This document shows positions 593 through 46,759 of a DNA stretch of 64,000 bases, piece by piece. The notes under the pieces are model-generated. The model did not search any database. It was not told where the DNA came from and saw only the letters and a program-made list of their open reading frames with translations. The translations under genes and the position numbers were made by a program. The stretch covers positions 96,534,001 through 96,598,000 of the forward strand of contig OX597818.1 of the NCBI GenBank assembly GCA_951406725.2, written 5' to 3'. Each line of letters opens with the position of its first letter. Positions within the stretch are counted from its first letter, which is position 1. The stretch comes from Octopus vulgaris (Eukaryota).

Positions 593-766
593 TAAATATG
601 TTTTAAAAAATGAATTTGGCCAAATTTGGACATACGGCAGTTTAACATAATAGCAAAGATATATGTATGTGTGTGTGTGTGTGTGTGTGTGGGTGTGTGT
701 GTGTGTGTGTGTGTGTGTGTGTGTGTGTGTTTGTAAATATAATATGTGACAATTATTCGGTAGCCA

Positions 767-829
767 TGATAAAACTCCGAGTTTCGGATGTCGGGGCGGA
801 AACCCACGTCGCCATCTCTTCCGTTATCA
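767..829 (-). ncRNA. Minimal type I hammerhead ribozyme-like motif (core variant CGGAAGA)
   Basis: Minus strand reads TGATAA-CGGAAGA-GATG..CATC-C-GAAA-CTCGGAG-TT-TTATCA, giving a 6-bp stem I. Confidence 0.55.
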
Positions 830-899
830 GGCCATCAAAAAAGTGCTATGAAAATGACCGTTAAACAATTTCCCTGTGTTTAACGGTCATTTTCATAGC

Positions 900-958
900 A
901 TAACTGAAGAGATGGTGGCGTGGGTTTCCGCCCCGACATCCGAAACTCGGAGTTTTAT
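900..958 (+). ncRNA. Minimal type I hammerhead ribozyme-like motif (canonical CUGAAGA core, GUU triplet)
   Basis: ATAA-CTGAAGA-GATG(gtggcgtgggtttccgccccga)CATC-C-GAAA-CTCGGAG-TT-TTAT. Confidence 0.65.
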
Positions 959-1098
959 CATGGCTACCGAATAATTGTCACATATTATATTTATAGATAA
1001 ATTCCTCTATTCACATAATATCGCGATCTCTTTCATTCTTTTGTTGTCTTACCATTTCTATCAATATATATATATATATATATATATATATATATATA

Positions 1099-1460
1099 AG
1101 CAATAATAAATCTCAGAGCGAGTTATAAACAGTAGCTACAACACATCGTGACGTATATTTGCCATTTAAATATGGCTAACCCCTAAGGGTGGATGCTACT
1201 GTAGTTTGTAGCCCCAGGAGGACACCTCCTCCCGCTGGCCATAGACACACTCACACGCCGATGACGGATCAATACACAGAAACTCGAGTCCGTGTGTATC
1301 ATAAGTTGAAGACGGGAAGGATGGCTTCCCTTTGCAAATACTGATAGGGCACAGAAAGTGTGTCTATGGCCAGCTGGAGGAGGTGTCCTCCTGGGGCTAC
1401 AAACTACAGTAGCATCCACCCTTAGGGGTTAGCCATATTTAAATGGCAAATATACGCCAC
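1099..1460. mobile_element. Palindromic element in (TA)n with a hammerhead motif in its loop
   Basis: Inverted arms of about 104 bp (1148-1251 and 1357-1460, about 2 mismatches) and a 105-nt spacer. (TA)n on both sides. Confidence 0.8.
1252..1296 (+). ncRNA. Minimal type I hammerhead ribozyme-like motif (CCGAUGA core, GUC triplet)
   Basis: CACACG-CCGATGA-cggatcaatacaca-GAAA-CTCGAG-TC-CGTGTG: perfect 6-bp stem I, palindromic stem III ACTCGAGT, weak stem II. Confidence 0.65.
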
Positions 1461-1816
1461 TATATATATATATATATATATATATACACTTTTATCAGAA
1501 TACCTGTTTATATGTAAATCATACAGATGTATAAGATATCTACACATGTATACGACGAATACACACACACACACATGCACGCGCGCGCATGCGTATGTAT
1601 ATGCATGCAAGCTAACTTGTGATACATTTTGCATTTTCCTTTATGTGATATATTTGCAGTCCATTCTTCCTGTTCCTTTAATTTCCATAAACATGACATC
1701 ATAGCAACGACTGCTTGTTTAGTCATCGTACACTCTCGCTGATTAAATATTTCACTTTGATGAACGAAATAGTGCTTTCCAGGTAAATGTATGCCCACTG
1801 GTAACAAAACACACAC

Positions 1817-2008
1817 GTGTGTGTGTGTGTGTGTATATATATATATATATATATATATATATATATATATATATATATATATATGTAGAGATAGATAGAT
1901 AGATAGATAGATAGATAGATAGATAGATAGATAGATAGATAGATAGATAGATAGATAGATAGATAGATAGATAGATAGATGATAGATAGATAGATAGATA
2001 GATAGAGA
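1817..2008. repeat. Compound microsatellite (GT)n(TA)n(TAGA)n, representative of dozens of similar tracts in the window
   Basis: Direct inspection. Confidence 0.95.
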
Positions 2009-43215: not shown

Positions 43216-43696
43216 TTTGTTTTCTTCTCACTTACTTGTGTCTCTCCTTACTAACCGTCAGCCATTTTGTATTTCTATTGTATGTCTTCATTTGCGCATG
43301 TTTATATCTCTATGTGCGTCTATGTTTATTTAGTGTGTGTGTGGGGGGAATGCCTGTAATATTTGTATCTTCTGGTTATATACATTCTTGTAATTTGTAT
43401 TTTGTTTTTGTTGTTGTTGCTTTTGTTCTAATTTTGTTCATGTGTTTACATCCACCCATTATTATCATTACATATGCTTGTATGTATGTATAACAACAAT
43501 ATTAGTAATAATAATAATAAATCTAATCGAAAAAAAAAAAAAAAAAAGAATATACATATACATATATATATATACATACATATACATATACATATACATA
43601 TATATACATATATACACACATATATACACATATAGATATTCATTTCTATTTCTTTAATTACCTGTGTATTTATTATGTTTGCAGGATCCACTATTG

Positions 43697-44470
43697 TCAT
43701 ATGTTGTGGTGTGCGCTATTGCTCCATTCTAGTTTTCTATTCAGGCTAGGTTTATTTTCTATTATATGTGTAGCTTCTGTAATTTGTCTAATTGTTGCAT
43801 CTGTTCTATGTGTGGACAATATCTTAATCTCTATGTTATTGATTGATCCCCCGTGTTCTTGTTCGGCGTGTTGGTACAGAATCGATGAGCTTTTACCTTC
43901 CTTGAGTTGTCTCCAATGTTCATTCACCCGCTCACCAATGCTTCTTGCAGTTTCCCCTACGTATGTTACTGTCTTGTTACTGCACCGTCCCTCTATACAT
44001 CTTATACTATAGACCACATTTCTGGCTTTACAGTTCGTTTGTGGGCTAAATCTACATACAGTGCAATAGTTATCCGTACAGAGAGTTCTACTAAAAGGAT
44101 AGCTTCTACCAATTATAGATCTGATAGGATTGCCTGGCTTTTCAACAACCTTAATTCTTAGTTTAAGTTTATCTAGGGTCCTTCTAAAGCGGTACGCTAG
44201 TTCACCTCCAGGGGTGGTGTCAACGAACATGACACTCTGGTATTTATGGCTATCATACCAAGAGTTGGCCTTCCCTATTTTCTTGTTTGTCCTTTCTATA
44301 GTGTTCCATGACTTGTTCCTATAGAGTGGGCAAATCCCATTCCTATCATTACATAATATATTATCAAATTTCTTCATGGCTCCTTTGTATACTCTGATCC
44401 TTTCTTTATGGCTGTAACCTGAGAACTGCATGCGGTGAATGAAATACTGTATGTGTCTCTTTAATTCTGT
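43697..44470 (-). CDS. PLE ORF C-terminus: RT thumb, Cys linker and GIY-YIG endonuclease (5'-truncated, frame intact)
   Basis: FSGYS..PLYR..W..WY..VMFVDTTPGGEL..VVEKPG; linker CTDNYCTVC..C; VVYSIRC..C..TYVGETARSIGERVNEH..H..EH..E..LN. The first about 21 aa of the listed ORF come from the junction. Confidence 0.88.
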   Translation of the reverse strand, partial: TELKRHIQYFIHRMQFSGYSHKERIRVYKGAMKKFDNILCNDRNGICPLYRNKSWNTIERTNKKIGKANSWYDSHKYQSVMFVDTTPGGELAYRFRRTLDKLKLRIKVVEKPGNPIRSIIGRSYPFSRTLCTDNYCTVCRFSPQTNCKARNVVYSIRCIEGRCSNKTVTYVGETARSIGERVNEHWRQLKEGKSSSILYQHAEQEHGGSINNIEIKILSTHRTDATIRQITEATHIIENKPSLNRKLEWSNSAHHNI

Positions 44471-44472
44471 AA

Positions 44473-45144
44473 TTTGATAATATATTATGTAATGATAGGA
44501 ATGGGATTTGCCCACTCTATAGGAACAAGTCATGGAACACTATAGAAAGGACAAACAAGAAAATAGGGAAGGCCAACTCTTGGTATGATAGCCATAAATA
44601 CCAGAGTGTCATGTTCGTTGACACCACCCCTGGAGGTGAACTAGCGTACCGCTTTAGAAGGACCCTAGATAAACTTAAACTAAGAATTAAGGTTGTTGAA
44701 AAGCCAGGCAATCCTATCAGATCTATAATTGGTAGAAGCTATCCTTTTAGTAGAACTCTCTGTACGGATAACTATTGCACTGTATGTAGATTTAGCCCAC
44801 AAACGAACTGTAAAGCCAGAAATGTGGTCTATAGTATAAGATGTATAGAGGGACGGTGCAGTAACAAGACAGTAACATACGTAGGGGAAACTGCAAGAAG
44901 CATTGGTGAGCGGGTGAATGAACATTGGAGACAACTCAAGGAAGGTAAAAGCTCATCGATTCTGTACCAACACGCCGAACAAGAACACGGGGGATCAATC
45001 AATAACATAGAGATTAAGATATTGTCCACACATAGAACAGATGCAACAATTAGACAAATTACAGAAGCTACACATATAATAGAAAATAAACCTAGCCTGA
45101 ATAGAAAACTAGAATGGAGCAATAGCGCACACCACAACATATGA
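44473..45144 (+). CDS. PLE ORF C-terminus: GIY-YIG endonuclease, second copy (5'-truncated, frame intact)
   Basis: Same protein as the minus-strand copy from FDNILCND to the stop. Confidence 0.88.
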   Translation, partial: FDNILCNDRNGICPLYRNKSWNTIERTNKKIGKANSWYDSHKYQSVMFVDTTPGGELAYRFRRTLDKLKLRIKVVEKPGNPIRSIIGRSYPFSRTLCTDNYCTVCRFSPQTNCKARNVVYSIRCIEGRCSNKTVTYVGETARSIGERVNEHWRQLKEGKSSSILYQHAEQEHGGSINNIEIKILSTHRTDATIRQITEATHIIENKPSLNRKLEWSNSAHHNI

Positions 45145-45628
45145 CAATAGTGGATCCTGCAAACATAATAAATACACAGGTAATTAAAGAAATAGAAATG
45201 AATATCTATATGTGTATATATGTGTGTATATATGTATATATATGTATATGTATATGTATATGTATGTATATATATATATGTATATGTATATTCTTTTTTT
45301 TTTTTTTTTTTTCGATTAGATTTATTATTATTATTACTAATATTGTTGTTATACATACATACAAGCATATGTAATGATAATAATGGGTGGATGTAAACAC
45401 ATGAACAAAATTAGAACAAAAGCAACAACAACAAAAACAAAATACAAATTACAAGAATGTATATAACCAGAAGATACAAATATTACAGGCATCCCCCCCA
45501 CACACACACACTAAATAAACATAGACGCACATAGAGATATAAGCATGCGCAAATGAAGACATACAATAGAAATACAAAATGGCTGACGGTTAGTAAGGAG
45601 AGACACAAGTAAGTGAGAAGAAAACAAA

Positions 45629-45673
45629 GGACCACTGATGCGGTCACAGGAGTGTGACGAAAGAACTTTGGCC
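45629..45673 (+). ncRNA. Variant minimal hammerhead motif in the PLE pLTR (right arm)
   Basis: GGACCA-CTGATGC-G-GTCACA(GGAG)TGTGAC-GAAA-GAAC-TT-TGGCC, about 485 nt downstream of the ORF stop. Confidence 0.55.
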
Positions 45674-46759
45674 GAAATAAGATTAAGATTAATGTAAAAA
45701 ATAAATATCACTGAAGCAAAATAACACCAAATATATAGTGCGTGTGTTTTTATTGGCTAAACTGGCAATATGACCATTCCGAAATATAACAATATATGTT
45801 TCAACACACGACTTCACATAAAAAATCTTGCACAACATATATATATATATATATATATATATATATATATATATATACACATACATACATGCATACATAT
45901 GTATATATATATATATACATACATACATGCAGACATATTTATATATATATACATATATATATATATATATACATACATACATACATGCATTCATATGTAT
46001 GTATATATATATATGTGTGTCTGTGTATGTATGCATACATACATAATGCATATATGCATGCACGCATACATACATGCATACATACATACATACATACATA
46101 CATACATACATACATACATACACACACACATACATAATGAACGCAGGGATGGCCAATTGAGCTAAGTTCGCTGCGCAGTCGAATGGTCCTAGATTCAATA
46201 CCATTAAGTGGAATTTTATACAAGTGTCTTTAATCATAGCCCCGACTTGACCAAAACCGTGTTGGCGAAGTTGCCACTTATATTATTGAGAAGAGAGATC
46301 TAGACAGTCCGCTTCTTGGACATTAGTTTTAAACCTGATGTCAGTCATAAATCTTTTTCTATATAAATGTTTTATATATTCATGAAAATGTGACTAATCA
46401 TAAATATAATTAGGGACTAGTAATTGGTATCAGTAAGAGGAACACGCATCTATTCTTATATAGAGATATCTTCGATAGCGCTGCACTCCATTACTGCGAA
46501 CCTGCAGTGAAATCTTATTCTATAAGGAGGAATCTTCTCTCTGATCGGAATTAAGGACGGTAAATTGACCTAGTTTAAACCTATCTCTGTTTAACTTATA
46601 TATCTCCAAGAATTCTGCATTTCCAAAGAAAGGTGTTTTTAGGAGGGAGTTATCTCATTTAAGAATATCCCGAGCGATTAAACTGCAGAGAACCAACCAC
46701 CAATGACTGCAAGAAAATTCACGTATATTCATCTCTTCAGTTTCTGTACCAAGAAATAT

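Follow-up and report, generated by a model that had tools for sequence, protein, structure and literature searches.

Two-armed, one-tailed insertions of Penelope-like elements and a retrozyme in the Octopus vulgaris genome, probably formed by priming at two fixed sites of one RNA

In a 64,000-nt stretch of the Octopus vulgaris genome (OX597818.1, 96,534,001-96,598,000; genome 2.8 Gb), hereafter called the window, we found insertions in which two copies of the 3′ end of one element stand head to head. An initial annotation of the window had listed three such inverted duplications, bounded by (TA)n or (GT)n tracts and each with one longer arm. All three are present (E1, 732-1064; E2, 1099-1460; E3, 43047-45837), with the element 3′ ends facing outward in every case. 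A fourth insertion (E4, 19428-19562), overlooked at that stage, combines an 81-nt inverted arm with a 54-nt arm of tail sequence, and the two have nothing in common. E1 and E4 were assigned to the Hydra clade of Penelope-like elements (PLEs), E3 to a Nematis-like PLE and E2 to a non-LTR (long terminal repeat) retrozyme. Each family has two end sites, termed n (upstream) and T (tail end). All are 5′-truncated PLE or retrozyme insertions, and we consider it likely that each fold-back arises in one event, with both nicked strands priming on the same RNA, one at T and the other at n.

Family copies (loci numbered with L) were collected from the whole genome, where exact matches to family words amount to 2405 for E1, 881 for E2 and 2964 for E4. 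The E1 sample comprised 60 loci taken from the top of the listing (67 rows), the E2 sample the first 40 loci listed, namely 39 loci and a tandem array (L198), and the E4 sample the first 30 rows listed, which gave 21 loci; these samples, like that of E3, were drawn blind to the insertion ends. For E3, 18 loci were obtained from the first 22 rows using the 5′ part of the reading frame as the query, with two loci left out. The best-hit loci L001-L090 were kept out of the counts of tails and of two-armed shares because they had been selected by their likeness to a tailed fold-back. Two-armed loci accounted for 37/60 in E1 (36 found by script and L100 by eye), 23/39 in E2, 17/18 in E3 and 15/21 in E4. 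After correction for the doubled hit chance of two-armed loci, the share was about 48% each for E1 and E2, which roughly corresponds to 2800 and 670 fold-backs, and the earlier suggestion that such insertions form routinely is thus borne out. In 32/32 paired E4 loci among the matches listed (100 rows), a minus-strand arm precedes a plus-strand arm, so the two stand head to head. Microsatellites lie on both flanks of 24/36 E1 and 14/23 E2 fold-backs against a background of 6% per 14-mer, in agreement with the proposed targeting of (TA)n.

The tail proved to be present on exactly one arm in 84 of the 91 two-armed insertions of the four families. The two arms ended at different sites, one at n and one at T, in 35/36 E1, 20/23 E2, 15/17 E3 and 14/15 E4 insertions; the script gave 19 for E2, to which L191 was added, an insertion continuing into a tandem unit that stops at n. 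Among the others, none carried a tail on both arms, one carried it on neither, and six were partial or damaged (L104, L179, L185, L237, L240, and L290). An independent choice of site by each arm would predict about half of the insertions to be one-tailed (p = 3e-11 for E1 alone). In all four families the tail consists of the first part of the next unit. When the surroundings of the two start sites were folded, no structure common to the four families emerged.

The lengths of the arms also bear on how they were made. The tail-less n arm reaches further 5′ in 22/35 E1 and 11/19 E2 insertions, while the T arm is the longer one in 8 and 6, respectively, and in L097 an n arm of 4.2 kb faces a T arm of 0.7 kb. 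Three insertions (E4 in the window, L314, and L196) have arms without common sequence, all of them within (TA)n, where a target duplication is unreadable. Since the arms may be non-nested or even non-overlapping, neither arm can be a copy of the other. The two arms derive from one source haplotype. When 21 E3 elements were compared at informative positions, the arms within an element mismatched at 2/159 positions vs 1089/3714 (29%) between elements, and 0 of 2000 permutations gave a value as low; minor alleles common to both arms were 2.4-fold (E1) and 3.8-fold (E2) above those of cross pairs.

Target duplications were assessed in 155 loci, of which 32 have non-microsatellite flanks. A direct repeat of 11-15 bp frames 6 of the 7 fold-backs with such flanks in the unbiased samples, and the seventh (L185) shows one by eye. 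The same kind of repeat was found at 8/11 best-hit loci, compared with 2/992 in a control of mismatched flank pairs. The initial annotation had put forward two diverging cDNAs as one possible origin, and the head-to-head arms, the single tail and the single target duplication agree with this. The centres of the E1, E2 and E3 fold-backs are nearly all different between copies, which indicates that the palindrome is formed anew with each insertion.

On the basis of these end products, the following course of events may be proposed. In a target that is AT-rich or consists of (TA)n, the GIY-YIG endonuclease would nick the two strands at positions about 12 nt apart, and each 3′-OH would pair by 2-4 A/T bases with one of the start sites, one with T and the other with n. 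The two cDNAs would then grow towards each other, stop independently, and be joined via microhomology or filler synthesis. The reverse transcriptases (RTs) of PLEs are not known to have RNase H, and therefore one RNA could be copied twice. If the tailed cDNA passed n, the common stretch would be copied twice and a palindrome would result; if it stopped before n, the arms would not overlap, as may have happened at 19428-19562 in the window. The retrozyme would borrow the PLE machinery in trans, and the fold-back products would probably be dead ends.

Several other origins were weighed against this one. In a self-priming scheme, which the initial annotation had offered as a self-primed hairpin cDNA, the molecule that bends back on itself is either an antisense RNA or the first cDNA; copying then yields a hairpin, and a single tail remains once the endonuclease has shortened one end. 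Such a scheme accounts for the common haplotype and the single tail, as well as for the short central palindromes of L099 and L147, which are centred on the helix III palindrome, though inverted microhomology takes the form of a short palindrome with self-priming and twin priming alike. However, the copied arm must then be nested in its template, and given that both orders of arm length are common, a single trimming geometry cannot yield both; together with the three insertions whose arms have no common sequence, this makes self-priming unlikely. It is also quite improbable that host repair at (TA)n converted an ordinary one-armed insertion into an inverted duplication at a later stage. The window does contain a 253-nt host inverted duplication around (TA)48 with (TA)55 at its left (30575-31160), which is not PLE-like and for which no second genomic copy was found; it may stem from (TA)n-driven fold-back repair or from an assembly error, and if the repeat is real, duplications can arise without a PLE. 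But the centres of the PLE fold-backs consist of element sequence rather than (TA)n, and their outer ends lie at family-specific sites. Moreover, the inverted arm often has a tail or 5′ sequence absent from the other arm, one duplication frames the whole, and 17/18 near-identical young E3 copies are already two-armed.

The initial annotation had also envisaged a family of small palindromic ribozyme elements, and one could imagine fixed units resembling miniature inverted-repeat transposable elements (MITEs) that multiply as such. One E4 junction, at which the arms stop about 80 nt upstream of n at a CTAG word, does recur in L299 (twice), L308, and L315, and a matching 124-nt spacing was seen in 5/32 paired loci among the matches listed (100 rows). 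This is the single recurrent junction encountered; it lies at a hot spot where unrelated arms stop too, and the centre that such units should share differs between nearly all copies of E1, E2 and E3. We thus regard fixed units as very improbable, and only the faintest likelihood is left to palindromes created by long reads or by assembly. The latter view could draw on the E3 arms in the window, which are identical at 1322/1324 positions and whose junction was bridged by none of the contig pieces listed from four runs, 765 further pieces being outside the listing. Yet short-read contigs of 4 runs (4 studies) contain joins of the inverted to the sense arm at many other E1 and E2 centres, and one join, of 1229 to 1277, was found in all four, although one run may represent the assembly's own sample. 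Artefacts would not be expected to keep to the end sites of each family or to come with target duplications, and the arms of E1 and E2 have diverged by 3.5-7% on average.

Some observations weigh against the reaction that we favour, in which both nicked strands prime on one RNA, and the unbridged E3 junction is among them. L187 is an n/n insertion, tail-less at both ends. A common haplotype fits one RNA as well as two RNAs from a single source copy, and it may be reinforced by gene conversion between the arms. Junctions were scored for 36 E1, 23 E2 and 14 of the 18 given E3 insertions. An overlap of at least 2 nt was seen in 14/36, 9/23 and 8/14 of them, respectively, against about 15% at random, which speaks for the proposed reaction; the E1 and E2 values, however, come from local alignments tolerating mismatches and are perhaps inflated. 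Junction filler, often element-derived, was present in 16/36 E1, 8/23 E2 and 2/14 E3 insertions, and is thus as common as overlap in E1 and E2. About half of the E1 and E2 copies are one-armed, and just 1/14 one-armed copies with non-microsatellite flanks has a target duplication; since most lack it, a one-armed route or later loss must exist. For E2, an autonomous partner was not found: its sequence is not similar to E1 or E3 in the self-comparison of the window or to the E4 loci, the Penelope/Poseidon, Neptune and Naiad families being outside this search. In the in vitro work on an Anolis PLE protein, either strand could make use of the two start sites, and the experiments did not address their pairing within one event (PMC11167929). 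Finally, the evidence for twin priming consists of genomic end products.

Whether paired twin priming might be the default integration route of endonuclease-bearing PLEs, with an RT-endonuclease dimer that sets the two nicked strands on two fixed sites of one RNA, one site for each strand, and with retrozymes included, is a wider question, and we answer yes only tentatively, at a little under an even chance. If this holds true, the tail, the inverted copy and the target duplication would be three marks of one reaction, and the palindromes left in the genome, short, near-perfect and for the most part in (TA)n, would number in the thousands and be a possible large source of double-stranded RNA. 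In practice, fold-back stubs resemble MITEs or errors of assembly, and mis-annotation will follow.

For PLEs, the head-to-head layout has been published before, together with a target duplication and a tail that is optional. An inverted 5′-truncated copy, a one-sided tail and a (TA)n bias in Hydra and Naiad have been described, with endonuclease resolution of the tail suggested and with the way in which tandem and inverted insertions and the tail are formed given as an open question (PMC8557442). In Adineta, Pen2a has an inverted pseudo-LTR (pLTR), an optional tail and an 8-10 bp duplication, for which self-priming was proposed (PMC3846280), and Penelope of Drosophila virilis has inverted terminal repeats of variable size and a 34-bp repeat (PMC2377424). 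Short PLE insertions through 5′ truncation are also on record (PMC9977147). The octopus insertions are like these endonuclease PLEs (PMC3846280, PMC2377424, PMC8557442) in the head-to-head inverted 5′-truncated copy and in partial tandems. The known insertions have a 30-40 bp tail at one end and an 8-10 bp duplication around the unit, whereas in octopus the tails measure 66-70 nt in the Hydra families, the duplications 11-15 bp, and most copies are stubs of 0.15-0.5 kb. In the earlier papers the tail is optional and self-priming is proposed or the mechanism left open, while in octopus the tail falls on exactly one arm with the regularity given above. This one-tail rule was not found in the published PLE literature searched, although older papers or Repbase notes may hold the idea, and a literature search for Penelope with twin priming returned nothing relevant.

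Twin and dual priming are known from LINE-1 (L1; PMC2837659), where both nicked strands prime, as they probably do here, and where, as here, inverted fragments lie within one target duplication and the junctions show microhomology. In L1 the second primer is placed at a variable internal site, and an inversion with deletion results. In octopus the second site instead has a fixed position, 40-70 nt away from the first; the arms usually overlap, and insertions of this kind make up about half or more of the total. The closest biochemical counterpart is the Poseidon element PAc of Anolis, whose protein cuts and extends both strands in vitro from a pair of start sites on the RNA between which the tail lies, without the need for ribozyme cleavage, and for which a dimer is predicted (PMC11167929). 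The available part of that study, the only one done in vitro, makes no connection between the two sites of a single insertion or between them and an inverted copy. The one-tail rule, the non-nested arms and the common haplotype provide a precise prediction for the in vitro PLE system, and one that runs counter to the published self-priming idea.

E1 is, judging from its motifs and by-eye similarity to Hydra-1_Obim and Hydra-1_Ajap, a 5′-truncated insertion of a Hydra-clade PLE. It lies between a (GT)n tract (664-731) at its tail-less end and a (TA)17 tract (1064-1098) that it shares with E2. According to the alignment, its inverted arm (732-866, minus strand) is a 3′ pLTR stub that stops at the n site, and its sense arm (867-1064, plus strand) has a small deletion immediately 5′ of the hammerhead and ends in a tail of about 67-71 nt on the right side (about 998-1064). 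The arms are identical at 114/117 positions (self-BLAST E-value 1e-81). In L144, L206, and L212 the E1 tail is followed without a break by the 5′ untranslated region (UTR) and a reading frame that has decayed. When L206, L212, and L215 were translated in three frames, with stops retained, they showed MRWK, DKT and a C-terminal endonuclease region of the decayed parent, which matches the Hydra definition in its CxCX5C linker, CxxC, CxH, absence of CCHH and C-terminal GIY-YIG.

E4 represents a second, young Hydra family. Self-comparison and family copies placed its inverted tail-less arm, with hammerhead core CUGAUGA, at 19428-19506 (minus strand), and family copies placed its tailed arm, of tail sequence alone, at 19512-19562 (plus strand). 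An intact 727-aa open frame (L258) contains RWK, DKT and, at its C-terminus, GIY-YIG. The CxCX5C linker and CxxC are present and CCHH is absent, with CxH falling at the cut end of the translation examined. Given the many copies with intact 727-aa frames and the roughly 3000 exact end matches, this family is probably active. The units of E1 (about 3.1 kb) and E4 (3.36 kb) are both slightly above the usual Hydra size (<3 kb). Both families resemble Hydra-1_Obim and Hydra-1_Ajap (PMC8557442) in motifs, palindromic helix III hammerhead and (TA)n targets, but are distinct in that their pLTR and hammerhead sequences are unlike those of Hydra-1_Obim. We also observed that the 5′ ends of both families cluster 10-25 nt upstream of the hammerhead core, and that the E4 sample has no 5′ ends between about -90 and -500. 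A transcription start at this cluster was considered but not confirmed, as full-length E4 copies start elsewhere; an RT pause, a short transcript or a splice site may lie behind it.

E3 is, from its reading frame, the 3′ end of a young Nematis-like PLE; with E1 this upholds the PLE origin originally proposed, the parents of both families having been found. Its arms (43047-44370 and 44471-45797) lie between (TA)n tracts, and the 100 nt first taken for a spacer belong to the inverted arm. On the evidence of self-comparison and family copies, the inverted tail-less arm (43047-44470, minus strand) covers the 3′ end of the RT thumb and the GIY-YIG open reading frame (ORF; 43697-44470), the 3′ UTR and the pLTR, with a hammerhead variant near 43209. 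The sense arm (44471-45837, plus strand), placed by family copies, holds the ORF end (44473-45144), a hammerhead variant near 45635 and a 40-nt tail (45798-45837). The full unit is 4587 nt long and has an open frame of 1170 codons (P0001, L097:4298-7807, minus strand) with RT, a CX4CXXC linker and, C-terminally, a GIY-YIG with CCHH residues. These features are shared with Nematis and Neptune PLEs, the length of the unit and a long Asn-rich N-terminal region being E3's own. The spacing after CXXC is short and matches the Nematis rows of a published alignment, which, on linker spacing alone, favours Nematis over Neptune. The closest named protein is an Octopus vulgaris entry, 98% identical, and a Pfam search of P0001 returned no family at E 0.01. 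With their intact frames, E3 and E4 are two young families that offer material for testing. The Asn-rich region is reminiscent of the Asn-rich inserts in Adineta Penelopes. The E3 family has a single fixed n site, whereas its tail may end at either of two points (about 40 or 56 nt), and L233, one of its members, is inserted in (AAT)n, not (TA)n. Directly upstream of an E1 3′ UTR fragment, L108 holds a fold-back that belongs to an older E3-related family and has the canonical CUGAAGA core.

E2 is a non-LTR retrozyme as far as its sequence organization tells, with a tandem 352-nt monomer and one predicted type I hammerhead motif per monomer. The tandem array L198 has 8 exact motif matches and a ninth variant unit, and dispersed copies occur as well. 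No protein-coding region was apparent in the monomer, although no ORF scan was made. The window copy has (TA)n on both sides, arms identical at 104/107 positions and a self-BLAST E-value of 6e-73. In the family alignment, the inverted arm (1099-1251, minus strand) corresponds to the 3′ part of the monomer and carries a 46-nt tail (1099-1144) at its outer end; the tail-less sense arm (1251-1460, plus strand), delimited by alignment, extends about 106 nt further 5′ and is followed by a (TA)13 flank (1461-1486). Counted from the predicted cleavage site, the ends of the insertions are found about 170 and 215 nt downstream. E2 resembles metazoan non-LTR retrozymes in its tandem monomer, type I hammerhead, and dispersed and tandem copies (PMC7229834, PMC7761336, bioRxiv 10.64898/2026.07.22.740005; see also PMC11722881). 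The retrozyme literature argued for mobilisation by PLEs from co-occurrence and pLTR homology, whereas E2 itself carries the integration signature of PLEs: two fixed end sites, one tail, an inverted arm and a duplication of about 12 bp. This represents direct genomic evidence for retrozyme mobilisation by PLE machinery.

A minimal hammerhead, a motif type described in PMC4209133, had been claimed for each of the three first insertions. The motifs are present, but their cores include variants, namely CGGAAGA in the left arm of E1, CCGAUGA in E2, and CUGAUGC in both arms of E3. The right arm of E1 has the core CUGAAGA; its predicted type I motif (899-961, plus strand; CUGAAGA...GAAA) has a palindromic helix III and a predicted cleavage after GUU, in the layout of Hydra-1_aJap. 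This call rests on the alignment and the published Hydra layout, as the E1 search pattern had 1 match only. The window E2 holds a single motif match (1252-1297, plus strand), which lies in the unpaired loop and has helix II damaged. In 54 E2 motif matches (one evidently spurious), helix I is constant and helix II differs from one subfamily to another but retains its pairing; the core is canonical in 11 and CCGAUGA in 39, the young tandem array included. All 18 E3 matches lack A9. To judge from these cores, the families seem to spread with weakened ribozymes. Among the matches listed (150 of 299 rows) in an Rfam scan of the window there was no hammerhead family, those listed being microsatellite look-alikes, and folding of six hammerhead segments gave z-scores of -1.4 to +0.8, so that folding energy does not single out the hammerheads. 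The arms run through the predicted cleavage site, and therefore uncut RNA is the likely template. We infer that the ribozyme is a passenger in these insertions, with the cDNAs crossing its cleavage site, and a hairpin transcript of E1 or E3 would be expected to pair the ribozyme with its own antisense. Further CUGANGA...GAAA words at 16924 (+), 31423 (+) and 13463 (-) of the window may be other PLE stubs or due to chance.

Among the other repeats of the window, two old inverted repeats about 68-69% identical (4681-4919 and 33905-34197, the second between (CA)n tracts) are possibly decayed fold-backs or MITEs. Short interspersed repeats with several copies were found at 1-98, 18234-19010, 25655-25886, 50849-51307, 57436-57879 and 62934-63361, one of them a 184-nt tandem; we take these to be octopus SINE-like (short interspersed element) repeats.

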